A DNA stretch of 64,000 nucleotides from Alphaproteobacteria bacterium (GTDB lineage Bacteria > Pseudomonadota > Alphaproteobacteria > Rs-D84). The notes under the pieces were generated by a model. It made no database searches. It saw only the letters and a program-made list of their open reading frames with translations, and was not told the DNA's origin. Made by a program: the position numbers and the translations under genes. Position 1 is the stretch's first letter; each line of letters opens with the position of its first letter. Where the stretch lies: NCBI GenBank assembly GCA_017629245.1, contig JAGBXO010000003.1, positions 65,897 to 129,896 of the forward strand. The letters are read 5' to 3'. This document shows, piece after piece, positions 8,859 through 63,788 of the stretch.

Positions 8859-8868
8859 AACAAAAATA

Positions 8869-8967: not shown

Positions 8968-9117
8968 ATGGCAACGCCAAAAAGTAAAACAAGTAAAGCA
9001 CGTTCTGCACAGCGTCGTTCACATGATGCATTGTCTGTAATGCCTTGTGGGGTATGCAAAACATGTGGCGAAAAGAAGCGCCCACATCACGTTTGTTCTG
9101 CATGCGGTGCAAAATAA
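8968..9117 (+). CDS. rpmF: 50S ribosomal protein L32
   Basis: This 49 aa ORF is not in the supplied track because it is under 60 aa. Its product is MATPKSKTSKARSAQRRSHDALSVMPCGVCKTCGEKKRPHHVCSACGAK. The RRSHDAL and CxxCGExKRPHHVCxxCG motifs are the L32 signature, and an RBS (AAAGGA) lies 8 nt upstream. Confidence 0.85.
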   Translation: MATPKSKTSKARSAQRRSHDALSVMPCGVCKTCGEKKRPHHVCSACGAK

Positions 9118-9188
9118 TTTAACATAAAATATATGGGCAGAAAAAGGGCAGGGCAAATGTTCATGCCTTTTCTGCTTTTTTATACACA

Positions 9189-17702: not shown

Positions 17703-17893
17703 TTTTGTCTTCCTTATCTTTTTGCGCGATTATAGTCCAAGGTTATCACGGTCGCAATAAAAATTCATTATATTTTTTAATAAATTGTGAAATGGTTCCT
17801 GTTGTCTAATAAATTGTGAATTTTTTTGTTTGTATAAATTTGTAATAAGTGTTAAAATTAATAACAAGAAATTATGGAAAGGAAGATTTTATC

Positions 17894-20143: not shown

Positions 20144-20147
20144 TAAA

Positions 20148-20172
20148 ATGCCCCACTTGGGGCATTTTTTGC
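20148..20172 (+). terminator. Rho-independent terminator after paralog A
   Basis: The hairpin ATGCCCCACTTGGGGCAT is followed by TTTTTT. Confidence 0.65.
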
Positions 20173-20230
20173 TTGTTCTATATTTGGGAATGTGATAGAA
20201 TAAAAGCAATCAAAGGAAAGAGAGTCTATC

Positions 20231-49442: not shown

Positions 49443-49631
49443 TTGATATATCACAGTTTTTAGTTTTTTTTAGTGCATGGGGCAGAATTGGATGGATTTT
49501 TAAACTCTGGTTAAAATAAAAAACAACCGCACCCCAATAAAACTGTACCCAATACAAAAATCAAACGGGCAGAGAAATCTAAACAAAAAAACACACAGTT
49601 TGGTGTGTTTTTAAGCGGTTATCTCTTGTTA

Positions 49632-49725
49632 GGATACTAAGGCAAGTCTAAAGTTCCAGATTGCCAATAGTTTCAGACAGTTGGTTTCTAGGCCTGCATC
49701 ACATATCGCCTCGCATAGCATTTTT
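49632..49725. repeat. Repeat R, copy 1 (~94 bp; ~83% identical to 54191-54283)
   Basis: The two copies were aligned by eye and share CCAATAGTTTCAGACAGTTG...CTGCATCACA...CCTC.CATAGCATTTT. The repeat precedes the gene at 49850. Confidence 0.7.
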
Positions 49726-49849
49726 CCAAGTATTATTCAGTTTGTACACGTTTGTTTATTGCTTCGCTACACCAACATCATTATGTTCGCTTCATTTGAT
49801 TTGTTTATTTATTTGTGTTACAATATAGACAAATAAAAAAGGAGAAAAG

Positions 49850-50362
49850 ATGTTTAAAAAAGCTATCAACAAAGTTGAAACCATGAATCAGCTAGAGCAG
49901 ATGCAAAAAGAATTGTCTAAATTGGGTCCCGTGCCAAACGGTAAAGAAATATATGATTATGCAGTCAAATTTTTTAACGTAATTGTAAAGTTTCAAGATA
50001 ATTTTGCCTTGAATATTGATATGTTCCCTAAAACGGTAAAGTCAGCAGAGACTTTAAGACTACATATTACTAATGCTGGACGCGATGAATATGGTTGGGT
50101 TCGTGCCAAACGTGGCGAGCCTGTAACCTTGCATAATCTGTATCTGGGTAATGTATATGGCATTTGGACTGGTACGGCGGCATCGTTCAAAGAATCTTCT
50201 GATAAAGATACTCAACAAATTATTCAAAATCAGATAAAAAGTTTTATAAACAGTCATCGTGAACCTATGATAAGTCTGATTTCAGAAGTCCTGCAAAAAA
50301 ATAACAAACCAGATAATATTTTGGTAAAAGCAGCAATAAAAATGAAATCAAACTCAAAATAA
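49850..50362 (+). CDS. Hypothetical protein (170 aa)
   Basis: An RBS (AAAAGGAG) precedes the ATG. A terminator follows the stop (AAAGAAAGCACCATTTGGTGCTTTCTTT + T-run). No domain was recognised. Confidence 0.45.
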   Translation: MFKKAINKVETMNQLEQMQKELSKLGPVPNGKEIYDYAVKFFNVIVKFQDNFALNIDMFPKTVKSAETLRLHITNAGRDEYGWVRAKRGEPVTLHNLYLGNVYGIWTGTAASFKESSDKDTQQIIQNQIKSFINSHREPMISLISEVLQKNNKPDNILVKAAIKMKSNSK

Positions 50363-50417
50363 AAGAAAGCACCATTTGGTGCTTTCTTTTTAATGATTAC
50401 TCTTTGGTGTAAAAAGT

Positions 50418-50455
50418 TTTTTATTCCTACATCACACAACGCCTCACATAGCATT
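50418..50455. repeat. Repeat R, partial copy 3 (3' 37 bp)
   Basis: CTACATCACACAACGCCTCACATAGCATTTTAACAAG matches the 3' end of R1 (CTGCATCACATATCGCCTCGCATAGCATTTTTCCAAG). Confidence 0.55.
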
Positions 50456-50583
50456 TTAACAAGTTATTTGCACATTGTACATGTCTTTATAAACAAATTA
50501 CTTGGCAGTTTCCTGTAATTATTTAGCCCACAAATTATACCACAATGTATCACAATATGTTTATACGACAACTGTATTATTCG

Positions 50584-50607
50584 ACAAAAACCGCCCATAT
50601 GGGCGGT
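50584..50607 (-). terminator. Rho-independent terminator after the autotransporter gene (ACCGCCCATATGGGCGGT family)
   Basis: On the minus strand the hairpin is followed by TTTTT, directly after the autotransporter stop. Confidence 0.6.
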
Positions 50608-50620
50608 AGTGCCATAATTG

Positions 50621-53600
50621 TTAGAACACATATCTCATCGATAGTGTACCTGCGTGTGAAGTATAATCAGCGTGCCAATTAAAATCATAATTCACACCGA
50701 TTTGCAACCTGTCTATAACTTCGACAGATATACCGCATCCAAACTCAATCCCAAGTTCTCTGTCCAAATCATTGTCAATATATAACTGATTTGCATTTGG
50801 TAGTTGAATTAGTGTCTTTCCGCCATCTACCAATGCGTTATAGGTCGCATTAATGTATAAATTTTGATTTATAGACGTATTATTCACTTTTACAACATCT
50901 GTTAAGCCAACCCCTGCAACCAATGTCATAATATCGCTGTTAGTTTTATCGTGCTTAATCTTCAACGTGTCTGTATAATCATTCTGTGTGATATGGTACA
51001 CTCTAACGCCAGCATTTGGTATGATTGCAATATTGCGTTTGGCCGCCACATCCGTAAACATATGTCCAACGGACAATTGCAGCCCAAACGTATCTGTATC
51101 ATATGATGAATTTAGTGCACGATTCAGCAGATTCTGATTTTGTTGAAAATCAGACATTTCATACATCGCCATTGCGTTATATATCCAATTATCATGATTG
51201 TATTTACCATATGCAAAGAAATTATTGCTATCAACCTGACTATCTGTGACATTTGCGTGCATATTAGTTTTCGAAAAACTATACCCTAAGCCAACAGTTA
51301 AATTTTTTGATATACGACTATCTGCACCAATCATAACACCAAATCCATCCGCATCAAAAGAGATTTTATTATTATGTTTGAATGTTTGGTATAGACCACG
51401 CACCCATAAATCAGGCTGTACGTTATATATATCGCCACCAGAACGACCGTTAGCACTACTATTATCCATAAGCAATAATTGCAATGTATTAAATAGTGTG
51501 TCTGCATGTTGAATCAACATTGTCGTTGTTGTCGCTGACAAATCTCCAATATCACGCATTATAGCACCAATAGTATTATCTCCTAATTGGGCCATGCGAT
51601 TAATATCCTTGGCTACAGAATTAAAGTCTTCATTATTTTCAGATTGTGGCAACATCGCCATCAATATTGCCGCACCTGTTTCTGTAGTGTTAAGTGCATC
51701 TGCAACCTCCGATATGGATTTACGGTTATAAGAAATATTCAATACATTACCTGCATTGGTTATATCCATCGTAACATCGTAGATTGAATTATTTGACTGT
51801 ACAATATTCCAGTCCCCATCTGACAAATCAACACTATTTGCAATAGTGTGTGTTAATTGGCCCGATATAGTGCCATCAAATAAAACACCAACATTCAAAT
51901 TGTTTGTTCCCTGTAATGCGATATTGCCATCAACACTAATGCTATCAGATTGTGCATCAATATACATAGCCAATGTTGCTCCGTCTGACATATTTATATT
52001 GTTTCCAGAGACATTTGCACCATTAATATTTAAGGTCGCATTTTGTGCAATATTGATGGTGCCATCATTCCCCGTCATACCACCATTAATGTTTAACGTC
52101 GCATCTTGTGTCACATTGATAGTACCAGAATTAAAGATATCATTATCGTATACTGACGTACCAATTTGTGTCTTGTTGTTCATAAAATTATTTTGCCCAC
52201 GCATGGTTATTGTGCCAGAATTCCAAATCGCACCACCGCCTGTTAGTGTATCTTGTGAACCAATAACACCGTTATTTAAAAAGGTTGAATCTGTCATGGA
52301 AATTGTACCCATATTCCAGATTGCGCCACCTTGAGCAGTTCCTTGTTTTGCGTTGGCATAGTTTCCATTAAATGTCGCGGTCATATTGTTGATGTTTGCA
52401 ACCGCAGAGCCGTTATGTATCGCACCGCCCTGTGCCCACGATTTGCCATGCTTATTTTCTGCATAATTATCAATAAAATCACCAGACAATTCGCCAATTA
52501 CGCCGTATGAATATATTGCTCCACCCAATCCTGCAACCACATTGTCTGTATCCCAGTTTCCCGATGCATAGTTACCTCGGAACATTACATCCTGCATTGA
52601 TTTGACGGTTGTTGCAGCATTTGAAGCAGTATAAGACGTTGAATAAGCACCACCATATGCGACACCGTTACTATTTACTGCACGGTTTTCAATAAAATCA
52701 ACATTTTTTATCAGGTTAATTAATCCGATCGCACCATTATTCGTTGCAAAGGAATTCTTTATACCACCACCCATCGCGGGTGCATTTTTACTTTCTGTCT
52801 CTGCGACATTCCCTTGGAACAAAGAATTAGAAATTTCTCCGATTATGTTATAGTTGTCTAATGCTCCACCCGACGCATGACCTTCGGGTGCGTTTGTGCC
52901 AGGTTTATATGTTTTATTGTCGATAAATCGTGTATTTGTAATAACACCTATTTCAGAATACTGATTGTTGTCAATAGTTGTGCCGTGTCCACCGCCCTTG
53001 AAATTGGCCTGTGCTGTCATGACATTATCGATAAAATCTACATTTTCAATTCTACCTATTTTGGATGCATTATATATAATTGCACCGTGCGGAGCACTTT
53101 GTGCCGTTTCAAATCGATTGCCTGTAAAAACGGTATCCTTGATAGTAGCAATTTCACCAGCACCCAAATTTGAAATAAGACCACCCCATAAGTCATTTTT
53201 TGGAATAGATCCAACAAAATTATCATTGAACCTAGAGTTTGATATTTCTAAAATTTTACCTTTGTTCAAAATGGAGGCACCACCCCCGACTTCACCAGAA
53301 GACACAAATAATGTATTGTTCAATATCCCAACATTATCTAATGCCAATGTGCCATTATTTATAATCATACGTGGCGTAACGATATCAATTGCAGCCGCTG
53401 GATTGGTCCATGATGTAATATTTTTCAACACAACAGATTGAGATGCAGCAATATCTATATTGGCGGACACTTCAGAAGTGGTTGTAGACATATCCAACAC
53501 AACATTTGCATCCATTTCACTAAGTGCAGCTTTTAATGCCTCGAAAGACGTTAATGTATCGGTCGCATAGCATGGTGCTGCCATTATAGTCAATGCTGTA

Positions 53601-53629
53601 AACGGCATAACAATTCTTGCAATTTTCAT
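50621..53629 (-). CDS. Autotransporter with a Pmp-like GGAI-repeat passenger domain
   Basis: The signal peptide is MKIARIVMPFTALTIMAAPCYA. GGA[IL] repeats recur (GGAIYS, GGAIHN, GGAIWN, GGALDN). The C-terminal beta-barrel ends ...MRYVF. The product is 1002 aa. Confidence 0.75.
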   Translation of the reverse strand: MKIARIVMPFTALTIMAAPCYATDTLTSFEALKAALSEMDANVVLDMSTTTSEVSANIDIAASQSVVLKNITSWTNPAAAIDIVTPRMIINNGTLALDNVGILNNTLFVSSGEVGGGASILNKGKILEISNSRFNDNFVGSIPKNDLWGGLISNLGAGEIATIKDTVFTGNRFETAQSAPHGAIIYNASKIGRIENVDFIDNVMTAQANFKGGGHGTTIDNNQYSEIGVITNTRFIDNKTYKPGTNAPEGHASGGALDNYNIIGEISNSLFQGNVAETESKNAPAMGGGIKNSFATNNGAIGLINLIKNVDFIENRAVNSNGVAYGGAYSTSYTASNAATTVKSMQDVMFRGNYASGNWDTDNVVAGLGGAIYSYGVIGELSGDFIDNYAENKHGKSWAQGGAIHNGSAVANINNMTATFNGNYANAKQGTAQGGAIWNMGTISMTDSTFLNNGVIGSQDTLTGGGAIWNSGTITMRGQNNFMNNKTQIGTSVYDNDIFNSGTINVTQDATLNINGGMTGNDGTINIAQNATLNINGANVSGNNINMSDGATLAMYIDAQSDSISVDGNIALQGTNNLNVGVLFDGTISGQLTHTIANSVDLSDGDWNIVQSNNSIYDVTMDITNAGNVLNISYNRKSISEVADALNTTETGAAILMAMLPQSENNEDFNSVAKDINRMAQLGDNTIGAIMRDIGDLSATTTTMLIQHADTLFNTLQLLLMDNSSANGRSGGDIYNVQPDLWVRGLYQTFKHNNKISFDADGFGVMIGADSRISKNLTVGLGYSFSKTNMHANVTDSQVDSNNFFAYGKYNHDNWIYNAMAMYEMSDFQQNQNLLNRALNSSYDTDTFGLQLSVGHMFTDVAAKRNIAIIPNAGVRVYHITQNDYTDTLKIKHDKTNSDIMTLVAGVGLTDVVKVNNTSINQNLYINATYNALVDGGKTLIQLPNANQLYIDNDLDRELGIEFGCGISVEVIDRLQIGVNYDFNWHADYTSHAGTLSMRYVF

Positions 53630-54007
53630 CTCTTCTCCATTTTTTTATTTTTAATAACAGCCAATTGAATATTGGAGGTCTGGGAGTTAATAAATCAGAA
53701 CATTGTTGAACCCAAAGCCCCAAGTAGAATCCTATTGGATTTAGTTGATATTTTAACACCAATAGGAACAAAAGTCCAATAATGGACTGTTTTTTATTTC
53801 CAACATGAATATTCCGGTACAATGATTCAGGCGTATTCTGATCGTTTTTACCAATTTAACATTGTGTAATTTGGATTAGTCATCATTAAAGGTTAACTTG
53901 ATTTGCTTTAATAATGTTCTGATAGCATTTCTTTTCTGGGTTGTTTCTTGTTCACAGTTGTTTGCTTTATAATAAAACACGTTATTTCTTAGCCAGATAT
54001 TACCTAA

Positions 54008-54029
54008 TGCATCACAGTTTGCATCACAC
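54008..54029. promoter_or_regulatory. Tandem direct repeat TGCATCACAGTT-TGCATCACAC (copy 1 of 3)
   Basis: A 9 bp motif is repeated with 12 bp phasing, 167 bp upstream of the 17 bp att-like core at 54175. Confidence 0.5.
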
Positions 54030-54174
54030 TTTATCATGCTTTTACTCTTGTTTTTGTTGTCCGGTGCGTCAAAGGCTTGGAAAACTAACCTTTTTTGATG
54101 TGATGGCTAAAACTGAAATTGTCTGAAAATAATAAAAAAATCCAACAAAAGTGCTGGATTTCTAAGAAAAATTA

Positions 54175-54191
54175 CTGGTGCCGGTTGTCGG
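54175..54191. repeat. 17 bp att-like core CTGGTGCCGGTTGTCGG (identical to 56080-56096; the 3' end of a tRNA acceptor region)
   Basis: It is an exact 17/17 direct repeat of the core adjacent to the tRNA-Thr fragment near the integrase gene. Confidence 0.7.
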
Positions 54192-54283
54192 GATGTCAAG
54201 GCGAGTCCAAAGTCCAAGATTTCCAATAGTTTCAGACAGTTGATTTCTCAGTCTGCATCACACTTAGCCTCACATAGCATTTT
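54191..54283. repeat. Repeat R, copy 2
   Basis: See copy 1. It immediately follows the att-like core and precedes the gene at 54328. Confidence 0.7.
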
Positions 54284-54327
54284 GATAAAAAATATGATAA
54301 AATAAATGGGATAAAAAAGATTTACAA

Positions 54328-55104
54328 ATGAAATTATTGAATAAGTCTGAAATTTTAAGTGCCTTATCAAAACATCCCATTGGTCGAGGAACCGAGGCGA
54401 CTACATACGATGCTGGTCGCTATGTTGTGCGTGTGCCGCATACTGTAAAAATTGATAAAGCATTCAGGGAAAATCTATCCAACGGTACATACAACTATCA
54501 AAAGGTTGATAATATACACGGTCGCCGCAATTTTGGTCAGCCATTGTATAATTTAACAGACCCAATGTCCGGAACTGTGATGTTGTCTGTTTGTAAAAAG
54601 GTGGATGGAATTACTACAAACGATTTGGTCGAAGAACCATTGACGACAAAACAAAAATCCGATGCGATGGCTGTGGCAATTGAAAAGATGCGCATAATGG
54701 CATCTGCACCACAAAAATCTTATCGCAGGCTGGTTGATGATTTGAATCATCTGGCCGGCACAAACTTTACCATCGACCCGTGCGAGGGGAATATGTTGAT
54801 AAACCCAACCACTGGGCGGTTTTACATTATTGATTTGCGACCTGTTAAAAATGTACGCAATGTGGGTGATTTGATTTTGTTATTGCTGACAGATATTCCA
54901 GACATGCCTGATAATGCCGAGTATTTTGAACTGGAACAAAAGATTGTAAATAAACTGATGCGTGCGGCGCAGTCATGTGGTTTGTCTGTTCCGGAACAGT
55001 TAAAACTGAAACCGCGTGCATTAGAGGTTATAAAATCAGAGGCAGCACGCCAGTTGTATAAAAACAATTATCAGAATATCGCATTACATACGCATTCAAA
55101 ATAA
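54328..55104 (+). CDS. Hypothetical protein with weak protein-kinase-like motifs
   Basis: IGRGTEATTYDAGRYVVRV is Gly-rich-loop plus VAIK-like. NMLINPTTGRFYIIDL is catalytic-loop plus DFG-like. A terminator follows at 55107-55131. Confidence 0.4.
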   Translation: MKLLNKSEILSALSKHPIGRGTEATTYDAGRYVVRVPHTVKIDKAFRENLSNGTYNYQKVDNIHGRRNFGQPLYNLTDPMSGTVMLSVCKKVDGITTNDLVEEPLTTKQKSDAMAVAIEKMRIMASAPQKSYRRLVDDLNHLAGTNFTIDPCEGNMLINPTTGRFYIIDLRPVKNVRNVGDLILLLLTDIPDMPDNAEYFELEQKIVNKLMRAAQSCGLSVPEQLKLKPRALEVIKSEAARQLYKNNYQNIALHTHSK

Positions 55105-55106
55105 CT

Positions 55107-55131
55107 ACCGCCCAATTGGGCGGTGTTTTTA
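55107..55131 (+). terminator. Rho-independent terminator (ACCGCCCAATTGGGCGGT + T5)
   Basis: It is read directly from the sequence. Confidence 0.65.
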
Positions 55132-55136
55132 TTCGT

Positions 55137-55157
55137 GCATCACACTTTGCATCACAG
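55137..55157. promoter_or_regulatory. Tandem direct repeat TGCATCACACTT-TGCATCACAG (copy 2 of 3)
   Basis: It lies between the 3' ends of two convergent genes. Confidence 0.45.
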
Positions 55158-55160
55158 TTT

Positions 55161-55838
55161 TTACCGTTCGAATTTCATATTGTTTTTCAGCCATTCCCCA
55201 GCCTTGTTTAACTCATCAAGTGGCATATTTGATGTTTTATACTCTTGTTGAAATAATTCCTTGCGCAGTTTTTCTGGCATTGCGTCCAGCATTGCTTGCT
55301 GGTCGCCTCTTATATATGCGTCTACAACTGCCTGCAAAGCATGTCCGTGTTCTCGCAACAAGCTCATAAAAGCTCTCGGTAATACGTCAGACCCGATATA
55401 CCCCCCGTCTTTATACCCATGTTTTTGTGCAATTGCATGCGGATGCAAACCGTTTGGTGCCATGCGACAAATGCATCTGTTTCGAATTGAGTTTACAGGT
55501 TTGTGTTGAAATGCTTTATATTTGCTAAGCTCGTTGTCTGTTATGTTTGCGCCTATATAGTCCAGAATCATGTCTTTTGCAGGTTGGAACTTTTTTTCCT
55601 CTGGTTGATATGAATCAAAAATATAATCAACAAATTTAGCCAGTAACTTTGTTAGTTTTGGATTGTTATACGACATGATAACTTGTTCATAAATTTCCGG
55701 CTTAAAATAGCCAGAAGCGGAATATATCAGTCCAACTTTTGGAAATATTTTTTTAGTTTTGTTAAGTTTATCCGCGAAATCCTTCAAGGATATGATATTT
55801 TCCGTGCCTATTGAAAGCTTATTTTTTTTATCGTTCAT
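55161..55838 (-). CDS. Hypothetical protein (225 aa)
   Basis: The ORF begins MNDKKNKLSIG.... No domain was recognised. Confidence 0.45.
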   Translation of the reverse strand: MNDKKNKLSIGTENIISLKDFADKLNKTKKIFPKVGLIYSASGYFKPEIYEQVIMSYNNPKLTKLLAKFVDYIFDSYQPEEKKFQPAKDMILDYIGANITDNELSKYKAFQHKPVNSIRNRCICRMAPNGLHPHAIAQKHGYKDGGYIGSDVLPRAFMSLLREHGHALQAVVDAYIRGDQQAMLDAMPEKLRKELFQQEYKTSNMPLDELNKAGEWLKNNMKFER

Positions 55839-55899
55839 ATTTAATACTCCTATGTATATCCATGCACTAATTTTTTTATTTTATGTAACTATACCACAC

Positions 55900-55921
55900 C
55901 GCATCACTGTTTGCATCACAG
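55900..55921. promoter_or_regulatory. Tandem direct repeat CGCATCACTGTT-TGCATCACAG (copy 3 of 3)
   Basis: It lies 180 bp before the att core at 56080 and about 60 bp upstream of the minus-strand gene start at 55838. Confidence 0.5.
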
Positions 55922-56079
55922 TTTTTGGTGTTTTGGGGTCGTGGGGCGATATTAGGTTGGAATTGCACACCCCGAATAAAATAAAAACTATCTGCCCCGC
56001 AATAAAATTACGATTGGTGCAAAACTCAAAAGAGCAGGAAAACCCAACGAAAAAACGCACCATTTGGTGCATTTTAATT

Positions 56080-56125
56080 CTGGTGCCGGTTGTCGGACTT
56101 GAGCCAACGACCTACTGATTACAAA
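56080..56125 (-). other. tRNA-Thr(UGU)-like 3'-half fragment (anticodon loop through CCA) plus the 17 bp att core; no 5' half
   Basis: The reverse complement TTTGTAA-TCAGT-AGGTC-GTTGG-CTCAAGT-CCGAC-AACCGGC-A-CCA has an anticodon loop (TGT), a 3' anticodon stem, a variable loop, a T-arm and an acceptor 3' strand. The expected 5' partners (ACTGA, GCCGGTT) are absent upstream. Confidence 0.65.
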
Positions 56126-56226: not shown

Positions 56227-56279
56227 GGTAGCAAAAACTAAAATTTCATACCTGCGGTAGCAAATACGTAGCAAAAAAA
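56227..56279. promoter_or_regulatory. Three GTAGCAAA direct repeats upstream of the integrase gene
   Basis: GGTAGCAAAAA is at 56227, GGTAGCAAATA at 56256 and GTAGCAAAAAAA at 56268, about 30-80 bp before the integrase ATG. Confidence 0.45.
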
Positions 56280-56304: not shown

Positions 56305-57474
56305 ATGAAATCGAACCGCTTTAATTTTACTGAACGTGCACTGGCCGCATTGCCAGTTCCGACGACTGGTTCGGCGGTCTATTATGATGCCGGCTCAATG
56401 GACGGCCTGTGTGTTATTGTAACCTATGGCGGGACCAAAACATACTATGCCTATATGAAGTTCCAGGGTGTTCCCCGTCGCGTTAAAATTGCCCGTGTCG
56501 GTCAGATGAAGTTGATAGAGGCACGAATGAAAGCGCATACACTAAAAGAACGTTCCCTGCGTGGAGAAGACCCGTCGGCCGAACGGCGTGATGCATTGAA
56601 AGACATGACCCTGCGCCAGTACTATGAAAACATTTATGTGCCACAACATTCAATGGTTCATAAAAAGCCTGCGACCGTATACGATGACAACGGACTGTTC
56701 CGTCGCAATATGAAGCCGTTTCATAATCGCCAGATGCGAACGATATCTCAACTGGAGGTATCCCAACTGCACGGTTCCTTGAAACGTAAATGCGGCCTGT
56801 ACAGCGCCAACCGAACCCTGGGCCTGTTGCGCCACATGTATAACAAGGCGTACGAACTGGGCTATCCACGTCGCCTGGAAAATCCGGCACAATATGTCAA
56901 AGCTTTTAAAGAAAAAAGTCGCGACCGCTTTATGTCTCGGGCCGAGCTGGCACGCTTTTTCGAAGCACTTCAATATGCCGAACCCCGTTTCCGTCACTAC
57001 ATCTTGCTGTCATTGTTCCTGGGGCAACGGCGCAGTAGTATCTTGGCATTGCGCTGGGGCGATATAGATTTTGAAAACGATATTGTGCGATTTGTTGATA
57101 CCAAGAATGGCGATACTGTTAACACACCCATGACGGACCAGGCCCGTGAAATACTGATACAAATGTACAGAACAGCTGGGGATAATCCGTGGCTGTTCCC
57201 CAGCAGCACCAGCAAAAGTGGCCATATCGAAGAGCCTAAACGTGCGTGGAATGCACTGCTGAAACGTGCGAATATTGAAAACCTTCGCATCCATGACCTG
57301 CGCCGCACAATGGGCAGTTACCAGGCCATCACCGGATCCAGCCTGCACATCATCGGCCAGTCGCTGGGGCATCGGTCCACCGCCGCCACCCAAATCTATG
57401 CCAGATTATCCTGTGATCCGGTCCGTGAATCCATGCAACGCGCCACCAATTCAATGCTGGGATTGTTGGGATAA
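56305..57474 (+). CDS. int: Tyrosine site-specific integrase (P4-type)
   Basis: The N-terminal arm-binding-like region is MKSNRFNFTERALAALP...YYD. The C-terminal catalytic residues are R...HDLRRT...GHRSTAATQIYARL (R-H-R-Y). Confidence 0.85.
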   Translation: MKSNRFNFTERALAALPVPTTGSAVYYDAGSMDGLCVIVTYGGTKTYYAYMKFQGVPRRVKIARVGQMKLIEARMKAHTLKERSLRGEDPSAERRDALKDMTLRQYYENIYVPQHSMVHKKPATVYDDNGLFRRNMKPFHNRQMRTISQLEVSQLHGSLKRKCGLYSANRTLGLLRHMYNKAYELGYPRRLENPAQYVKAFKEKSRDRFMSRAELARFFEALQYAEPRFRHYILLSLFLGQRRSSILALRWGDIDFENDIVRFVDTKNGDTVNTPMTDQAREILIQMYRTAGDNPWLFPSSTSKSGHIEEPKRAWNALLKRANIENLRIHDLRRTMGSYQAITGSSLHIIGQSLGHRSTAATQIYARLSCDPVRESMQRATNSMLGLLG

Positions 57475-57591: not shown

Positions 57592-59106
57592 ATGAAAGAT
57601 ACGTCTAATATTTTTAAATTACCACCGAAAGAACTGGAAACAAAAAAATCTTCTTTAGATGTGTTGTGGGATGATACCGCACCAGAAATAGTAGATTTTG
57701 CAAGAAAATTACAAGGATTATTACAAAGTGTTGATACCCCATATGTCATCGGTTTGGACGGTGGATATGGTACAGGAAAAACGCATTTTGCAACCAGGTT
57801 TGCGGCACAAATGCATGAACAAATCAAAACAATATATTTTAGTGCCTGGGAAAAGGACTATGAAAAAGAGCTGATAACGGTTTTTCTAGAACAAATCGCC
57901 AATTTAATAAAGACGGACAAGAAATATATTGAAAGCAGCCAAATAAAAAACATAAAGTCTCTTCTAAAATCACTATGGGTTGCTATCGAAAGCATATCCG
58001 TAAATAGTCCTATTACAAAATTCCCCATAAGTATGACATTCAATGTTGAGCATTTTAGAAGACAATTAAATAAGTTAACTATTAAGGAAGATATGTTACA
58101 AAATGCTAAACGTGAATTAGCTAATTATATAAAGTCTTTGCCGCATGAAAAAATGGTTCTTATAGTGGATGACTTGGATAGATGTAGACCTGATACAGCG
58201 GTCAAGATCTTAGAAACGGTAAAACATTTTTTTGATATTGATGGCCTGATTGTTGTGATGCCTATAAATCAATCTAGGTTGCGACAATATATAGATGCTT
58301 TTTATGGTATTGGCGGCACGGCGGAACAAAAAGGTGTTGTTGCAGAAGATTATTTGCAAAAATTCTTTAATGACATAATAGATATTCCGAATTTAAATTA
58401 CGAGAAAATATGTGCAGACCGTATTACAGAAGAAGAGTTTAGAAGTAACTTGGTTTATGAGGGTGATAGTTACAATAATATTCAAGAATTGCGGAAATGG
58501 ATTGCCGAGTATGCAAAAAAATCGCATTTTTCCTACCGGGAAACGGTCGAACTAATAAACAGAGCAAAATTGTTTTGTAATACGTATCATGAACCTATAA
58601 GATGCAGACTGTTGGCTTATCAGTTGTGTAATCGTTTACATAAAGAAAAAAACAAAATGCGGCACGAATATAACGATATAGATTATGGTGAAGATAATGT
58701 TTATAAGGATTGTCCACAAAATACAAAGAAAAAATTATTTTCCCATCACCCTGCCTATCAGCCCCTTAGTTCAATAAACAACAGATTTGGCCACTTGGCT
58801 CGCATTAGATTACGTGCTTATGTGTCTACAGCTGGACAGATTCATGACACATATGCAGATGTGTACAAGCAGATAAAGCATTTAATTAAATTGGTGTCAG
58901 ATATTTCTGAAACGGATTTTAGGAACAAGACAGCATATAACAATTATATAAAACCAGAACTAGAGGTAGTAGTGCCCGCTCTGAAAACGCTATATAAAGA
59001 ACTGAGAGAATTTCAAAGAAAACATGGTTCTGATGATTCTGATCTAGATAGAGCAAAAGATTATGAGCTTAAGGTTTATAACCCTCATTTGTTAGGGGAC
59101 AAATAG
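57592..59106 (+). CDS. KAP-family P-loop NTPase
   Basis: VIGLDGGYGTGKTHFATRFA is the KAP-type Walker A. LIVDDLDRCRPD is the Walker B/DRC motif typical of KAP NTPases. Confidence 0.65.
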   Translation: MKDTSNIFKLPPKELETKKSSLDVLWDDTAPEIVDFARKLQGLLQSVDTPYVIGLDGGYGTGKTHFATRFAAQMHEQIKTIYFSAWEKDYEKELITVFLEQIANLIKTDKKYIESSQIKNIKSLLKSLWVAIESISVNSPITKFPISMTFNVEHFRRQLNKLTIKEDMLQNAKRELANYIKSLPHEKMVLIVDDLDRCRPDTAVKILETVKHFFDIDGLIVVMPINQSRLRQYIDAFYGIGGTAEQKGVVAEDYLQKFFNDIIDIPNLNYEKICADRITEEEFRSNLVYEGDSYNNIQELRKWIAEYAKKSHFSYRETVELINRAKLFCNTYHEPIRCRLLAYQLCNRLHKEKNKMRHEYNDIDYGEDNVYKDCPQNTKKKLFSHHPAYQPLSSINNRFGHLARIRLRAYVSTAGQIHDTYADVYKQIKHLIKLVSDISETDFRNKTAYNNYIKPELEVVVPALKTLYKELREFQRKHGSDDSDLDRAKDYELKVYNPHLLGDK

Positions 59107-59241
59107 CATTTAATTATACATCCCCCACAACATTTCAAACCGATTGGTGTATTCTTGCGCTGGGAGGGTCAGGAAGATACAGTTTTTACTGTTATATTTA
59201 TGGGCATAACAAAATTTGGCTAATAAAGACAAAAGAAATAG

Positions 59242-59658
59242 CTAGTAATTCTGTTTTTTATAATATTGAAACAGTAGTACCAATATAGCATAGCATAAAA
59301 AACAAAAAAGTAGACCACCAGACAGTATCAATGCATTTTCTAATCCATCTAGTACAGCTAGAATAATTGTTAGAAATGCAACAGCCAGTAAAGCAGTACA
59401 ATAGGATTTTATGTGGTTGTGTATTGATGATTTTATTTGGTTATAAGCATATATAAAAAAACTACATGCATGCTTGATAAGCTTAGGGATGTTTCTCAAA
59501 AAAATAGCAATTCCATTAAAAAGAAGCACAAAAACAAAAACTGCTATTGGGATTTTGATAAATACAGTAAGTAGAATATCAAGCATTGGTTTGCTCTTTA
59601 TTATTGCTGCACAAGACGACTTTTTTGATGTCGCTTGTGCAATTACTTGCACACACAT
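59242..59658 (-). CDS. Small hypothetical membrane protein (possibly shorter, starting at MLDILL)
   Basis: The ORF has 3-4 hydrophobic helices and lies between the KAP NTPase gene and hsdR. Confidence 0.3.
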   Translation of the reverse strand: MCVQVIAQATSKKSSCAAIIKSKPMLDILLTVFIKIPIAVFVFVLLFNGIAIFLRNIPKLIKHACSFFIYAYNQIKSSIHNHIKSYCTALLAVAFLTIILAVLDGLENALILSGGLLFCFLCYAILVLLFQYYKKQNY

Positions 59659-59718
59659 ATTCTACACCATTTATTGAAAAAATCAATTGATAAACAAAGC
59701 CCCATTTTGGGGCGTTGT

Positions 59719-62700
59719 TTAATCGATTTCCATCAGGTTATCAGTCCATAATTCACACTGGGTCATAACAGTCTGAATAGCATCATCTTCGCCCTCTGGT
59801 GGATATTTATGCTTGCGTAAAAGCCGCTTTATTGTCATTCGCATTGCAGCACGAGCATCATCTTTGCGTTGCCAGTCTACAGTCTTATTTTTCTGCAGCG
59901 CCTCGGTCAGTTCCTTTGTGATGGCAATAAGCTCATCGTTTTCATAGAAGTCTTTAACGGCTCGTGGTTTTGTCAGAGCATCATAGAATGCCAATTCCTC
60001 AGGACTCAAACCAAGATCCTCACCTTCCTGCTGTGCCGTTGTAATTTGTTTAGCCAGGTTCATCAATTCAGCGATAACTTCTTCATTGGTTAGCATGCCA
60101 TTCAGGTACTTATTCATAACTGTTTGAATGATTTCGCTAAATTTTTCTGATTTTACAATATTGGTTCTGCGATATACCTTAATTTGCTCCGCAATCAGTT
60201 TTTTCAGCAATTCAACGGCGATATTGCGTTCCTTCATCTTGGAAATTTCATCCAAGAATTTTGGGTCAAATAAAGAGAAACCGTCTGACACATTCGTAGA
60301 GAAAAGGTTTATCACCCCATCGCTTTTAATGCTCTGTTTTAGCATTTCATTGATTTTCTCATTCAATTCCTTTAATGACATTTTCTTGCCACCAGAACCA
60401 GCAAACATCATGCGCTGAATCAATACACGTATTGTTTCAAAGAATGCTGCTTCAAAGCGCATGTCTTTTTGGACCATAGAAGAACATAATGATAGAGCTT
60501 GGTTCAACATTAAAGCTTCCTTGCGGAATGACTCCTTGGTGTCATTGCGTGACGGTTCCAGCAAGAAATTCAAACCACCACTAATTGTTGTGGCTTTTTC
60601 AAGCGGAGTGCCTGTAAAGAACAACTGATAATCGTAACCATGCATCAGTGAACGGCAAACATCTAATTTTTCCAAAAACTTTGGATATGCTACTTTACCA
60701 ATGTCGGGGTCGCCAAATTTCTTCTTATCACGGGTTGTATAGTCGTTCATCGCCTGTTTAAGAGCAGCCGCAATACCGATATAGTCGACCACCAAACCAC
60801 CTTCCTTGTCCTTAAATACGCGATTAACACGTGCGATAGCCTGCATCAGATTATGGCCTGACATTGGTTTATATACATACATGGTCGCCAATGACGGAAC
60901 ATCAAATCCAGTTAGCCACATGTCAACCACAATAGCGATTTTTAACGGACTGTTATTATCCTTGAACTTGGTGGCCAGTTCTTCACGATGAGCCTTGTTG
61001 CCGATGATTTTGCGCCATTCTTCAGGATCCTTGTTTTCATCTGTCATGACAACTGCGACTTTATCAGTCCAAGTCGGACGTAATTCCATGATACGATTAT
61101 ATATTTTCATAGCAATTGGACGAGAATAAGCCACAATCATAGCCTTGCCAGTGAGCAAATCAGCACGGTTATTTTCATAGTGAGCAAGAATATCTGTTAC
61201 AAGGGAATCAATAGTGTTGTCATTACCCAAAACGGCTTCCATTTGACCAATTTGTTTCTTGCTCTGTTCCAAGACTGCAGGATCAACGGCATCAGCTAAG
61301 GCGTCATACTGTTCGTCAATTTCTTTGATGACTTTTTCGTCTAATTTTAGTTTCACAACCCGACTTTCATAATATACAGGACGAGTCGCACCATCTTCAA
61401 CAGCCTGTGTCATATCATAAACATCAATATAATTACCAAAGACCTCACGTGTGTTACGATCCTTGATAGAAACAGGTGTGCCAGTAAAGCCAATATAGGT
61501 AGCATTAGGTAGGTTGTTACGGATAATACGGGCTGCCCCTACAACTCGCTTTGTGATATCATTACCATCGGCATCCTTGGTCATTTTGATTTTTTCAGTT
61601 AAGCCATACTGACCACGATGTGCTTCATCAGCCATTACAATAATATTGGTCCGTTCTGACAGTGGCTCATCTGATTCCTCGAACTTTTGCATGGTTGTGA
61701 AGATAATACCATTGGCAACACGGCCGTCTAACCAATCTTTTAAGCCTTTTCTGCTAGTGGCTTGGACAGGTTCCTGGCGCAAGAAGTCCTTACACTTGGC
61801 GAATTGTCCGTATAATTGATCGTCCAGGTCGTTTCGATCAGTAATAACGACAACAGTTGGGCTTGTCAGGGCAGATTGCAATAACTTGGCATAAAATACC
61901 ATTGAAAGTGATTTGCCACTTCCCTGGGTGTGCCAAAAGACCCCGGCCTTACCATCATTGCCGACAGCGTTTTCTGTCGATGTGATCGCCTTGCGAACAG
62001 CAAAATACTGATGGTATCCAGCAAGGATCTTAACATCTTGCTTACTTTCCTTAGAGAAACAAATAAAATTCTTTAAGATATCCAGAAAACGTGTTTGCTC
62101 AAACATGCCGATAAAGAATGTATCAAACTGAGCAGCCTTTGTATTTTCGTAAGAGCCATCAGTAGTCTTCCACTCCATGTAACGGTCTTCGCCAGCGGTG
62201 ATAGTACCTGCCTTAGAGGTCAATTGGTCACTCATGACACAGAAAGCATTATAAATGAACATTGATGGAATTTCCTGCATATAATTACGCAGCTGACGAT
62301 ATGCCTCGGAAACCTCCGTTTCTTCTCTAGAGGGTGATTTTAACTCCATTAAGACAACCGGAATACCATTAAGGAACACTATCAGATCAGGTCTTTTTTC
62401 GCTATTTTCAATAAATGTCCACTGATTAGCGATAATGAAAGAGTTGTTTCCTAGATCAGAGTAGTCAACAATGCGAACCAATTCAGTCCTGGATTCGCCA
62501 TTTTCAACGAATGGAACTTCAATACCATTCTGAAGATAATTAGTAAATGCCTCGTTGCGCTGGATCAGGTCGCCATTATCAAAGTATTTGATCTTGTTAA
62601 AAGCCCCCTCAAGAATCTTTTCAGAGGTAAACGGATTGAGTCTCTTAAGTTGGGATTTAAGAATATCTTCATACAATGGACTGGTGTAGTCACGGACAAC

Positions 62701-62790
62701 ATCAGGACCATAAACATGCTGATATCCCAGTTGTTGGAACAGTTCTATAATAGATACTTCATAACTATTTTCGTTAAATATAGTGCTCAT
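59719..62790 (-). CDS. hsdR: Type I restriction enzyme R subunit
   Basis: The 1023 aa product has the Walker A motif FWHTQGSGKS and the DEAH box IVMADEAHRGQ. The N-terminal nuclease and C-terminal helical regions are typical of HsdR. Confidence 0.9.
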   Translation of the reverse strand: MSTIFNENSYEVSIIELFQQLGYQHVYGPDVVRDYTSPLYEDILKSQLKRLNPFTSEKILEGAFNKIKYFDNGDLIQRNEAFTNYLQNGIEVPFVENGESRTELVRIVDYSDLGNNSFIIANQWTFIENSEKRPDLIVFLNGIPVVLMELKSPSREETEVSEAYRQLRNYMQEIPSMFIYNAFCVMSDQLTSKAGTITAGEDRYMEWKTTDGSYENTKAAQFDTFFIGMFEQTRFLDILKNFICFSKESKQDVKILAGYHQYFAVRKAITSTENAVGNDGKAGVFWHTQGSGKSLSMVFYAKLLQSALTSPTVVVITDRNDLDDQLYGQFAKCKDFLRQEPVQATSRKGLKDWLDGRVANGIIFTTMQKFEESDEPLSERTNIIVMADEAHRGQYGLTEKIKMTKDADGNDITKRVVGAARIIRNNLPNATYIGFTGTPVSIKDRNTREVFGNYIDVYDMTQAVEDGATRPVYYESRVVKLKLDEKVIKEIDEQYDALADAVDPAVLEQSKKQIGQMEAVLGNDNTIDSLVTDILAHYENNRADLLTGKAMIVAYSRPIAMKIYNRIMELRPTWTDKVAVVMTDENKDPEEWRKIIGNKAHREELATKFKDNNSPLKIAIVVDMWLTGFDVPSLATMYVYKPMSGHNLMQAIARVNRVFKDKEGGLVVDYIGIAAALKQAMNDYTTRDKKKFGDPDIGKVAYPKFLEKLDVCRSLMHGYDYQLFFTGTPLEKATTISGGLNFLLEPSRNDTKESFRKEALMLNQALSLCSSMVQKDMRFEAAFFETIRVLIQRMMFAGSGGKKMSLKELNEKINEMLKQSIKSDGVINLFSTNVSDGFSLFDPKFLDEISKMKERNIAVELLKKLIAEQIKVYRRTNIVKSEKFSEIIQTVMNKYLNGMLTNEEVIAELMNLAKQITTAQQEGEDLGLSPEELAFYDALTKPRAVKDFYENDELIAITKELTEALQKNKTVDWQRKDDARAAMRMTIKRLLRKHKYPPEGEDDAIQTVMTQCELWTDNLMEID

Positions 62791-62903
62791 CTGTTTTCTC
62801 GTTTTTACTTTTTTTTCTTAAAATGTTTGACAAGCTATTTTTATTATGTCATCATAATATCAGAGGTTCGGCTGAGGGGTTGCTAATGGTGGCTCCAACT
62901 GCA

Positions 62904-63788
62904 TTACCTCTTTTTTCTTGTCTGATACGGGCTCTTATGCAGCTTTATGCTCTCTAATACTTTTCGCTGTCCCTTTATGGTCTTATAGCCTTTATATTGC
63001 AGGCGTGCAATTTTGTTTTCATACCGTTCTTGTATTTCTGAACGTGCGGGCGCATGCATACCCTGAGATCTTCTGTACCCTGTATTTATGATATAAATAC
63101 AAACATCTGCTACCTGTATCAAATAATTTATATCTGATTCTATAAATAAAGGCTCAGGAACAATCCAATTGGCGTGTTGTTGTCCTGAAATAGTTTTCGA
63201 AAAATAGTTCGTTAGCTGTCTTTTAAACTTTTTATCGTATTCTTTTTCACATTGATCCATTATCAATAGACCGTCTTCTCGCTGTCTTGCCAAGAAATTT
63301 GCGAAAATTTCCATCAAAAACACATGGTCTTTACGTAGATAATCATCAAATTCAAAATTTAGAGGTTTCTTAACACCTTTTTCGATTAGGCATGCAAAGA
63401 CTTTCGCCTTGTATTTTTTTAGCAGACCAAGAATAGTGTCTGCCATCTCTAATGATGCTTGACCAAATGCGGTAAAGTCTTGTCTGGTGGGACTTCTTTT
63501 TTCTAGGCATGCGGTTAAAAAACGCCTACACCCCTTTTGGCGATCTTCTTTGGAGAGCTTTTTATCCTGAGCGGCCCATTTAAAGCGCTCTTTTTCCAAC
63601 AGTTTAGATCCTTTAATTTCTGTTTTAAATTCTGATAACCTACAGCCAAAAATTTTTTCTTCTGAACATTGAATATCTTTTAGAAAGTTGAAAACATTAA
63701 CAGAAGCAATAGAGATCCCACCACGAACTTCGTAATTCATGTTTTTATGGTCATGTCCACTTTCATCCATAAACAATAAATAACTCAT
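62904..63788 (-). CDS. DUF3800-like protein inserted between hsdS and hsdR
   Basis: The N-terminus is MSYLLFMDESGHD, the (Y/F)xDESG start characteristic of DUF3800. The product is 294 aa. Confidence 0.45.
   Translation of the reverse strand: MSYLLFMDESGHDHKNMNYEVRGGISIASVNVFNFLKDIQCSEEKIFGCRLSEFKTEIKGSKLLEKERFKWAAQDKKLSKEDRQKGCRRFLTACLEKRSPTRQDFTAFGQASLEMADTILGLLKKYKAKVFACLIEKGVKKPLNFEFDDYLRKDHVFLMEIFANFLARQREDGLLIMDQCEKEYDKKFKRQLTNYFSKTISGQQHANWIVPEPLFIESDINYLIQVADVCIYIINTGYRRSQGMHAPARSEIQERYENKIARLQYKGYKTIKGQRKVLESIKLHKSPYQTRKKR

Follow-up and report, generated by a model that had tools for sequence, protein, structure and literature searches.

The attP sites of lambda, P2 and P4 type have a core flanked by arm-type integrase sites, with sites for bending proteins in between. 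P2 has two direct arm repeats per arm, and the integrase sites of P4 overlap its integrase promoter. Site-specific tandem accretion has been reviewed as a model for the ICESt1/ICESt3 family of Streptococcus thermophilus (PMC5704250). In Prochlorococcus, the tyrosine-recombinase elements known as tycheposons insert at tRNA genes, newcomers push earlier ones inward, and the resulting islands retain fragmented integrases and partial tRNAs with the oldest material farthest from the tRNA (bioRxiv 10.1101/2020.12.28.424599). Genomic islands built by tandem accretion, CIME-like decay and tycheposon-like growth are thus already known, and the locus described here, which lies in a 64-kb stretch of DNA (the window) from Candidatus Enterousia, an uncultured gut alphaproteobacterium of a genus with small genomes, is another instance; what is new is that accretion at tRNA-Thr is done by an integrase family so far unnamed. 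The segment from 49.4 to 56.1 kb is very probably a pile of decayed integrative elements of one family, inserted serially at the 3' end of tRNA-Thr(UGU). The target of the accreted elements is the final 17 bp of this tRNA, and the remnants mostly lack an integrase. Tandem accretion had been proposed in a first-pass annotation of the window; that interpretation proves to be essentially right, and three of the tests it suggested were run, all with favourable outcomes.

The anatomy of the locus is directly observed. The motif TGCATCACA occurs in eight exact copies in the 64-kb window against 1.4 expected, a number reached in 0 of 100 shuffles, and seven of the eight lie on the plus strand inside 49695-55920 (6.2 kb). 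Tandems with a 12-nt period are found at 54008/54020 and 55136/55148; in the tandem at 55900/55912 the first unit, CGCATCACT, has two mismatches and the second is exact. The 17-mer core CTGGTGCCGGTTGTCGG is present in the window only at 54175 and 56080, even with three mismatches allowed, and a third, degenerate core identical to it at 9 of 17 positions (CGGTTATCTCTTGTTAG) can be placed at 49616-49632. Tandem-to-core distances are 167, 180 and about 166 nt (164-180 bp had been claimed), and the degenerate single tandem copy previously noted is the decayed arm unit ATATCACAG at 49448-49456, which aligns with the tandem of the other junctions. Repeat R, claimed for two junctions, is 82% identical across 99 nt between 49626-49724 and 54185-54283. 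All of the features in the first-pass annotation (repeats, cores, spacing, R, tRNA half and integrase) are therefore present in the sequence. Its list lacked a second arm pair that belongs to R itself, TGCATCACA-N4-GCCTCRCA, at 49695-49715 and 54254-54274, a partial R at 50418-50491, and the minus-strand terminator hairpin that a hairpin scan placed after each core, at 54163-54136 and 49612-49587. For the third junction the scan gave a plus-strand hairpin (GCACCATTTGGTGC, 56057-70), the minus-strand form and its T run being read from the sequence.

Each tripartite junction is composed of two element ends meeting at the 17-bp core, namely the attR arm (R) of a newer element and the attL arm (D) of an older one, D containing a terminator and a TGTGATGCA tandem; arms and cores are all assigned to the minus strand. 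The oldest, degenerate attL-type flank, D1 (49447-49615), comprises the terminator, a spacer and the single decayed arm unit, can be aligned end to end with D from other junctions and other species at 70-75% identity, and abuts the terminator of a conserved 84-aa HTH gene. The repeat alignment places the degenerate core of junction 1 (49616-49632) in register with 54175-54191, and the adjoining attR-type arm, R copy 1 (49633-49724), has the arm pair TGCATCACA (49695-49703) and GCCTCGCA (49708-49715); it is homologous to 20 R copies of other genomes, in which the pair-to-core distance is 82-85 nt. At junction 2, the attL-type arm D2 (54008-54174) contains the terminator, a spacer and the TGCATCACA arm pair at 54008 and 54020, which counted from the tRNA end lies at +147/+159 and corresponds to codons 4-10 of an integrase that we term Int-T. 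The core of this junction (54175-54191) exactly duplicates the terminal 17 bp of the tRNA-Thr locus, from the T-stem 3' strand to CCA, plus G, and the attR-type arm R copy 2 (54192-54290) carries its arm pair at 54254-54262 and 54267-54274 together with a conserved block, AAATCAACTG. The attL-type arm of the newest unit, D3 (55900-56079), holds the terminator hairpin at 56057-56070, a spacer and an arm pair that is exact at 55912-55920 and has the two mismatches at 55900-55908, with no integrase gene behind the arm. The 17-bp core of junction 3 (56080-56096) is the end of a displaced tRNA half.

Loci fetched from related genomes, designated by L-numbers, were compared with the window. D2 is 97-100% identical to the DNA immediately following an intact tRNA-Thr (L029, L033, L077, L118) or a tRNA fragment (L088, L102). 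The intact tRNA is joined directly to the junction-2 flank at 99-100% identity in the first four of these loci; in the other two, a P4 integrase and tRNA fragment directly adjoin that flank. All six lack the 1.9-kb unit and join exactly at the core. Because the tRNA or its fragment is joined straight to junction 2 in these relatives, the 1.9-kb unit between the exact cores represents a precise presence/absence polymorphism, which is observed directly. The comparison proposed earlier as a check on accretion thus gives empty sites bounded by the core in six loci, and unit numbers differ among the arrays of other species. The tandem motif is found downstream of tRNA-Thr, on the tRNA strand, in 36 genomes of Ca. 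Enterousia and related organisms, with both tandem units at about +160/+172 in 19 of the 36; the dispersal that had been named as a counter-result is not seen. Among 40 copies of D, the two arm units are among the best-conserved blocks. The minimal array (L084) consists of tRNA, core, D, a single gene, R, core and D', and L039, L054, L098, L057 and L097 each have an additional exact second core at a distance of 1.0-5.6 kb downstream. A variant core, CCGACAA followed by AGGCTACCCG, is seen at at least 10 junctions; it could not rebuild the tRNA and is unexplained by a simple accretion model. Rfam searches at gathering and permissive thresholds returned only chance-level matches for R, D and the core, and R is not a known RNA. 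A structured hairpin in D (GCGGGGCGG ... CCGCCCCA) was considered and rejected; its boxes are conserved, but the changes, judged by eye, break the pairing with no compensation.

The cargo lies between these junctions. The older segment contains a gene for a 170-aa protein (49850-50362, plus strand), which is also cargo in the L097 and L038 arrays, and an autotransporter gene (50621-53629, minus strand, 1002 aa; Pfam PF03797, E=6e-30). The newer segment contains a gene for a 258-aa protein (54328-55104, plus strand) and one for a 225-aa protein (55161-55838, minus strand). Searches of Pfam, PADLOC and PDB sequences gave no match for cargo proteins other than the autotransporter (Pfam and PADLOC for the 170-aa protein, all three for the 258-aa protein). 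The 258-aa gene together with R recurs at 96-97% identity in L097 and L119 but next to other D flanks, and the module at 55924-55136, which includes the 225-aa gene, is 97% identical in L081 in another context. Cargo modules are 96-97% identical between genomes in which the flanking chromosomal genes are only 72-84% identical, and so look to have been transferred horizontally.

Two further sites on the minus strand are best read as collapsed junctions. At 50418-50491, an R-type arm pair (50428-50436 and 50441-50448) runs directly into a right flank of D type, GGAATAAAAAAC, and the R-proximal part, core and D are missing. L097 provides the uncollapsed counterpart, with core, D, pair and CGAATAAAAAAC followed by the 170-aa gene, and L015 and L016 part from the window exactly at the outer edge of 50418-50491. 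The second site (55136-55156) is an arm pair without a core, the left flank of which matches the boundary between the 225-aa gene and R seen in L081, and the right flank of which, CGAATAAAAAC, is a D type found ahead of reversed cargo. The first-pass annotation had recognized the tandem accretion and counted two units; the accretion stands, and with these collapsed junctions (marked by the 55137 tandem and, at 50418, by the partial R) the number of units is probably four.

Behind junction 2 on the minus strand (53840-54037) lie two fragments of the Int-T gene, likewise absent from the earlier list, which amount to 68 of 415 codons. Using the L029 integrase as a tblastn query, these align at 54037-53963 (96% identity) and 53968-53840 (91%), and represent residues 1-25 and 96-138 of 415. 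An intact 415-aa tyrosine recombinase (Pfam PF00589, E=5e-11) is present behind the same D2 flank in L029 and L102. The protein begins MIK-CDANCDA-LGNIW in both loci, and the TGTGATGCA tandem is therefore its codons 4-10; more generally, TGTGATGCA tandems sit within the first codons of tyrosine integrases of 415-550 aa. This cognate family and its arm layout are directly established. It comprises 169 database homologues and has no NCBIfam model, the matches being to Pfam PF00589 and, weakly, DUF6538, with no other curated family. The N-terminal tandem with its 12-nt period was present in 32 of 32 full-length N-termini among 34 homologues inspected, the remaining two (P0039 and P0066) being retrieved sequences that lack the N-terminus. 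The two tandem units usually encode the same or nearly the same triplet, which varies by integrase subgroup (CDA/CDA, CMA/CMA and CNT/CNT, with one mixed subgroup, CMT/CNT).

Complete islands of the family are found at four other tRNAs: tRNA-Lys (L161), tRNA-Gly (L152), tRNA-Leu (L164) and tRNA-Pro (L167). Each has a tRNA-end direct repeat of 19-31 nt and an arm pair about 95 nt ahead of the distal core. The pair at the integrase 5' end, at +147/+159 or +160/+172, is clear in three of the four and degenerate in L152, which, like the older segment of the window, has an autotransporter beside its integrase. The motif GTGTAATAC of L161 is identical on both arms, the sole such case among the complete islands; the motifs of the two arms are related in L152, L164 and L167, and in L164 and L167 they are similar yet non-identical. 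The earlier suggestion that the tandems are arm-type sites is supported by these complete relatives, in which a tandem lies on both arms at a fixed distance from the core and the motif tracks the integrase; the tandem is presumably bound by the integrase N-terminal domain.

These observations suggest a mechanism in which the attP of the circular element would consist of R, the 17-bp core and D. R would provide two arm sites, TGTGAGGC-N4-TGTGATGCA, about 83 bp ahead of the core, the core would be identical to the tRNA from the T-stem 3' strand through CCA, and D would supply the terminator of the rebuilt tRNA, about 100-115 bp of spacer and a further pair of arm sites, TGTGATGCA-N3-TGTGATGCA, at +147/+159 or +160/+172 and within the opening codons of the tyrosine integrase that the element encodes. 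When an element integrates at the core, the tRNA would be rebuilt with the incoming D behind it and the older element pushed outward, so that each internal junction would read R(new), core, D(old). Subsequent loss of the integrase gene would leave CIME-like units of arms, core and one or two cargo genes. Recombination between an R pair and the next D pair, which are about 260 bp apart in the same orientation, would delete cores and give the lone tandems at 55136 and 50428. Later, a P4-type island with its own arm sites would have split the tRNA in the anticodon loop, leaving a 45-nt half at 56081-56125. This order of events is deduced from sequence comparison and is accordingly provisional.

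Intact Int-T was found neither in the window nor beside R in about 30 arrays examined, and any present-day mobility of the integrase-less units, presumably by an integrase supplied in trans, is therefore putative. A metagenome scan for R gave seven further junctions, none with an integrase adjoining R, and a local profile search of all fetched loci found no recombinase beside R, although it did return several other integrase families at tRNA-Thr with the arm motifs TGGTCCA and TGGGGCA. The integrase-less units may be fossils shuffled by homologous recombination. It is also conceivable, although we consider it doubtful, that the one- and two-gene units make up a working cassette system at tRNA-Thr, in which each would have a complete attP equivalent (R-core-D) with outward promoters, be exchanged among Enterousia species and be moved by a family integrase acting in trans. 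Were this so, the system would be a functional analogue of the integron in which lambda-type att sites with arm sites replace attC hairpins.

An unlikely alternative is that the junction units are regulatory modules, each with a terminator, two outward promoters and operator repeats for, e.g., the 84-aa HTH protein, and that the array grew by homologous recombination among them after DNA uptake, with no site-specific integration involved. As a rule, D terminates in an extended -10-like box, TGTGATGCG-gtgTGgTATAAT, R ends with a conserved, outward-facing TGaTAAAAT box, and certain breakpoints (those of the 225-aa module and the collapsed junctions) lie at the tandems, away from the core. In addition, a pair of genes, HTH84/LysR, flanks the array in at least six genomes: the 49445-47984 region of the window has matches in L037, L038, L065, L100, L101 and L119, and there are HTH84 protein hits as well. 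Regulatory modules fail to explain, however, why each unit terminates in a perfect repeat of the tRNA's final 17 bp, why the unit between cores places a D of its own beside the tRNA while the former D stays in place, or why the tandem recurs within the 5' codons of an integrase family and, in complete islands at four other tRNAs, about 95 nt ahead of the distal core. The motif has opposite orientations relative to the two putative promoters, and the HTH84/LysR intergenic region lacks the tandem motif as a possible operator. Moreover, a promoter scan did not rise above shuffled expectation, and the promoters therefore remain putative. Homologous exchange probably adds to the shuffling of the units.

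The tandems, which the first-pass annotation likened to integrase arm-type sites, do not belong to the adjacent P4-type integrase; they belong to another family, of which only a remnant is left in the window. The P4-type tyrosine integrase (56305-57474, plus strand; Pfam PF13356, Arm-DNA-bind_3, and PF00589, Phage_integrase) has an arm-binding domain and adjoins junction 3 and its tRNA-derived att site, which might suggest that it built the whole array using TGCATCACA tandems. We regard this as very unlikely and contradicted by the data, since the P4-type island has its own TTTGCTAC(C) repeats on both arms: three at 56227-56275 on the minus strand (TTTGCTACC twice and TTTGCTAC once) and two at +85/+97 past the intact tRNA at the far island end in L042 and L046. 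A 50%-identical relative of the integrase has TTTGCTATG on both arms. The island also duplicates the 45-nt segment from anticodon loop to tRNA end rather than the 17-mer, and TGTGATGCA arrays lie behind intact tRNAs in genomes where this integrase is absent from the locus. The P4-type integrase belongs to a distinct island that arrived later and interrupted the tRNA within its anticodon loop. Its attR is the displaced 3' half of tRNA-Thr(UGU) (56081-56125, minus strand, 45 nt), which has the T-loop CTCAAGT where relatives have TTCAAGT and a 41-mer of which matches the 3' part of intact tRNA-Thr(UGU), identified by ARAGORN, at about 65 of roughly 80 scan loci. An intact tRNA-Thr of the window's own genome was found neither in the window nor within 10 kb beyond it. 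In a relative with a 99.2% identical P4-type integrase, an intact tRNA-Thr closes the same island type 28.2 kb away on the same contig, with matching arm repeats. The intact gene with a matching 3' end that had been proposed as a check is therefore present in that relative and widespread in the genus.

It is similarly improbable, to about the same high degree, that the tandem is kept only as the coding sequence of a needed N-terminal peptide (CDANCDA) of the integrase and that its non-coding copies are neutral leftovers. In L029, L102 and L151 the motif does form codons 4-10 of the integrase reading frame, and the peptide repeat is present in every one of the 32 full-length N-termini, but the tandem also occurs in the clearly non-coding attR arms of complete islands, and both units are among the best-conserved blocks in D relics that lack an ORF. 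Most subgroups, moreover, have the same triplet in both units and a triplet that differs between subgroups, as expected for paired DNA sites read by one protein. Finally, that the repeats are generic, genome-wide REP/MITE-like elements is hardly credible and is contradicted within the data examined, because, although the window does contain an unrelated family of similar terminator hairpins (ACCGCCC-N4-GGGCGGT, eight copies), seven of the eight exact copies of TGCATCACA fall on one strand inside 6.2 kb, the 17-mer occurs just twice in the window, units in other genomes always lie downstream of tRNA-Thr rather than being scattered in many copies over unrelated sites and both strands, and viral contigs scanned for the tandem and the R/core edge gave only chance matches.

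Our understanding of how genomic islands form is unchanged by the present case, which offers a worked example of one tRNA gene seeding a variable gene array common to several species. It also ties an abundant, uncurated integrase family to an att-site layout that includes arm sites within the integrase's own first codons, and this layout allows islands of the family and their decayed remnants to be spotted from sequence alone, an aid to island annotation in metagenome-assembled genomes. The locus has the features of a tRNA-targeting tyrosine-integrase element, with a recombinase by the att site (L029 and L102; fragments in the window), a tRNA-end direct repeat, empty and occupied sites, and arm repeats at fixed positions, +147/+159 or +160/+172 in one arm and 82-95 nt from the core in the other.

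The segment bounded by the exact cores matches the definition of a CIME as known from the ICESt1/ICESt3 family of S. thermophilus (PMC5704250): 54175-56096 keeps both exact cores plus an R and a D arm, and 54192-56079 contains no recombinase, a remnant being present only in the older unit (49633-54174), the distal core of which is degenerate (9/17). That the 258-aa gene and R meet a different D flank in each of the window, L097 and L119 would be in keeping, indirectly, with mobilization by a neighbouring element's integrase. Unlike ICESt1/ICESt3, the elements here inhabit an uncultured gut alphaproteobacterium, target a tRNA end and lack conjugation genes; many units have shrunk to a gene or two, and a single locus hosts the array throughout the genus. 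All of the listed features of tRNA-island growth in tycheposons are shared by the tRNA-Thr stack, a likeness of island layout, but here most junctions still have their arm sites and a conserved block, attP-like and about 300 bp long. The array resembles an integron in that small, horizontally shared gene units lie on one orientation-defined platform with old units far from the insertion point. In contrast to an integron, there is no integrase gene at the insertion point (no recombinase was found on the tRNA 5' side or beside R, and upstream of the tRNA lies a conserved gene of 416 aa with no assigned function), the sites appear as attP-like stretches some 300 bp long that bear direct arm repeats, unlike attC hairpins, and many units appear to have their own promoters. 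Like lambda-, P2- and P4-type attP sites, those described here have a pair of direct repeats on each arm, set at fixed distances from the short core, and an A/T-rich conserved block (AAATCAACTG) between arm and core; they differ in that one putative arm pair lies inside the integrase reading frame, at codons 4-10.

The repeats, cores and tRNA-Thr half listed in the first-pass annotation are real features of the window. Samples containing this exact sequence include ERZ27256948, ERZ27256965 and SRR12529113. Eight exact copies of TGCATCACA are present compared to the 1.4 expected, seven of them on the + strand between 49695 and 55920, and arm tandems having a 12-nt period are located at 54008/54020, 55136/55148 and 55900/55912, with two mismatches in the unit at 55900. 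The arm-unit motif of these tandems is TGTGATGCA. Even when three mismatches are tolerated, the 17-mer core CTGGTGCCGGTTGTCGG is found in the window only at 54175 (junction 2) and 56080 (junction 3). The two copies of R, an attR-type arm, at 49626-49724 and 54185-54283 are 82% identical across 99 nt, and a partial R lies at 50418-50491. ARAGORN calls no tRNA at 56081-56125; this segment is the 3' half of tRNA-Thr(UGU), and a 41-mer from it forms the 3' part of the intact tRNA-Thr(UGU) in about 65 of the approximately 80 loci tested, which were drawn from a scan of species-representative genomes and are hosted by Candidatus Enterousia and related gut Alphaproteobacteria. Two Flavobacteriaceae contigs (L030 and L031) also contain the exact 41-nt 3' half, as a fragment next to an integrase. 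On the - strand, which is that of the tRNA, a terminator-like hairpin lies downstream of every core. Near-alike terminators of a hairpin family, ACCGCCC-N4-GGGCGGT, are located at gene ends at 10264, 26081, 44985, 46775, 49419, 50590 and 55107, and one related locus (L016) has a 1.3-kb insertion precisely at the 44985 copy. At 17849-22456, two adjacent paralogous genes of about 740-764 residues form a tandem duplication of ~2.45 kb with roughly 80% identity.

The proposal that related genomes would differ in the presence of individual units is borne out for the 1.9-kb segment at 54192-56096. In four loci (L029, L033, L077 and L118), an intact tRNA-Thr abuts the flank of junction 2 (54191-53968) with 99-100% identity, and in two others (L088 and L102) the P4-type integrase (98-100% identity) and the tRNA fragment abut the same flank (97-99% identity). 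These direct joins reveal that the window has an extra unit placed exactly at the 17-bp core. The attL-type arm of this unit (D, comprising terminator, spacer and arm tandem) adjoins the tRNA, the older D having been displaced away from it; this is the order that integration of an R-core-D circle predicts. Insertion at the tandem is excluded because the old D would then have remained beside the tRNA. Cargo is different again in two close strains (L015 and L016) having flanks that are 97-98% identical. Moreover, genomes whose neighbouring chromosomal genes are only 72-84% identical share cargo modules at 96-97% identity, which points to recent transfer of these modules between species.

Similar arrays lie downstream of tRNA-Thr in other genomes when every locus is oriented by the tRNA and distances are counted from its 3' end. 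Nineteen genomes have the TGTGATGCA tandem at about +160/+172, three have it at +147/+159, and several more have it close to +61/+73; it is almost always on the tRNA strand, and further copies of the tandem and of R are located farther downstream. A second exact core is seen 0.7-5.6 kb downstream in six genomes. The simplest array (L084) consists of the tRNA, core, D, one small gene, R, core and a near-identical D. D extends for ~185 bp from core to tandem and can be aligned over 40 copies, its most conserved blocks including the terminator and the two 9-mers. R is alignable over 20 copies and carries its own pair, TGTGAGGC-N4-TGTGATGCA, constantly 82-85 nt from the core. These arrays are bounded by tRNA-Thr, the upstream neighbour of which is a conserved 416-aa gene, and by a conserved 84-aa HTH gene together with a LysR gene; the seven that can be bounded using the HTH gene range from 1.5 kb to 6.7 kb, the array in the window being the longest. 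Flank motifs read in the first 250 nt after tRNA-Thr, TGGTCCA in L085/L117 and TGGGGCA in L109/L056, accompany two further integrase families, so that at least four integrase families compete for one tRNA-Thr gene in the genus.

The tandems are most likely arm-type sites, given that the motif is present in attR arms and in relics of D, but the adjacent P4-type integrase (56305-57474) is not their owner. The P4-type gene is adjoined by TTTGCTAC(C) repeats (56227-56275), which also occur at +85/+97 past the intact tRNA in relatives for which the far island end is recorded (in one of these, intact tRNA and fragment are 28.2 kb apart on one contig), and for a 50%-identical integrase TTTGCTATG is present on each of the two arms. 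We therefore rejected the TGTGATGCA tandems as sites for this enzyme. In two loci (L029 and L102), the D2 flank at junction 2 continues without a break into Int-T, a 415-aa ORF encoded on the same strand as the tRNA and beginning MIK-CDANCDA-LGNIWLRNNVFYY, which means that the tandem corresponds to codons 4-10. Int-T is a tyrosine recombinase (Pfam PF00589, E=5e-11) with a weak match to DUF6538 and no NCBIfam model. Remnants encoding residues 1-25 (54037-53963, 96% identity) and 96-138 (53968-53840, 91% identity) persist in the window. The window has no intact Int-T-family integrase, and none adjoins R in the roughly 30 arrays examined.

A protein search gave 169 homologues, mostly of about 500 residues and 40-55% identical. 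We retrieved 34, two of which (P0039 and P0066) lack the N-terminus, and all 32 full-length N-termini encode a tripeptide pair with a 12-nt period. The triplet is specific to the subgroup (CDANCDA, CMANCMA, CNTRCNT, CMAKCMA) and is the same or nearly so in both units within most subgroups, one being mixed (CMTYCNT). Because the motifs are found again in attR arms that are non-coding, and are conserved in D relics having no ORF, they are read as DNA sites; they are most likely arm-type integrase sites, to which we infer that the integrase binds, and the peptide encoded by the tandem may be incidental.

Islands of the Int-T family at other tRNAs have the same layout. The tRNA-Lys island (L161, 7.07 kb) has the pair GTGTAATAC at the integrase 5' end (+147/+159) and an identical distal pair about 95 nt ahead of a 24-nt copy of the tRNA end. 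At tRNA-Gly (L152, 9.9 kb) the integrase pair is degenerate (GGGATGCA / TGTGATTCA) and the distal pair is perfect TGTGATGCA. Related distal pairs are found in the islands at tRNA-Leu (L164, about 10.7 kb, integrase pair at +147/+159) and tRNA-Pro (L167, about 7 kb, +160/+172), and an integrase beside a tRNA-Gly fragment (L151) has an exact TGTGATGCAaacTGTGATGCA pair, with no distal pair seen. Recurrent cargo of complete islands (L151-L168) includes a replication protein of the REP_ORF2-G2P type, DNA methylases, type I restriction genes, adhesins or autotransporters, and the toxin genes HipA and Fic; this gene content suggests plasmid-like replication after excision.

Read from right to left along the tRNA strand, the window contains the 45-nt tRNA half, D3, a 225-aa gene and the lone tandem at 55136, followed by a reversed 258-aa gene, R and the core of junction 2. 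D2 with the Int-T remnant, the autotransporter gene and the partial R at 50418 come next, and then a reversed 170-aa gene, R, the degenerate core of junction 1 (49616) and a degenerate D1, the array being ended by the conserved HTH gene. Each of the lone tandems (55136 and 50418) is flanked by R-type sequence on the left and by D-type sequence on the right, and uncollapsed counterparts of the two occur in L081 and L097. They are probably junctions from which recombination between two arm pairs of the same orientation stripped the R-proximal part, core and D, and on this reading the array would comprise four accreted units. Cores farther from the tRNA are more decayed (exact, exact, 9/17), which fits accretion with the newest unit nearest.

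At least ten R-core-D junctions (in L038, L064, L067, L081, L082, L106, L146, L148 and L150) have a variant core, CCGACAA followed by AGGCTACCCG in place of CCGGCACCAG; with this variant the acceptor stem of the tRNA could not be re-formed. Two other loci (L047 and L097) break at or just past CCGACAA, and this common breakpoint hints at the place of strand exchange. D and R both have conserved promoter-like boxes at their outer ends; a simple promoter scan gave no excess over chance.

The P4-type island would have split the tRNA in the anticodon loop, leaving the 45-nt half, which has a T-loop change that was not observed in relatives. When 59110-59660 is compared with 12860-13597 of L009, a phospholipase-D-like gene that is intact in L009 survives in the window only as its last ~100 nt (about 59110-59220), and a 138-aa membrane-like ORF takes the place of the remainder, so the island is itself mosaic. 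The KAP-family NTPase (57592-59106) beside the integrase matches PDC-S20, a candidate defence family, with E=6e-52. At 59719-63788 and, in L007, at 3101-9935 lies a type I restriction system in which a Xer-like recombinase sits among several hsdS genes or fragments of them; hsdS order is unlike among L007, L008 and L009, and the locus looks like a specificity-switching shufflon.

The att layout in the window is akin to that of lambda/P2/P4-type attP sites. An integron was rejected because the insertion point has no flanking integrase and the sites are not hairpins, and it is possible that the single-gene units work in an integron-like manner. The published accretion model for cis-mobilizable elements (CIMEs) has three steps, and the process in the window array matches it (PMC5704250). 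In tycheposons, elements that arrive later displace earlier ones into the island, leaving integrase fragments and partial tRNAs, and the window array shares this tRNA-seeded island growth (bioRxiv 10.1101/2020.12.28.424599).
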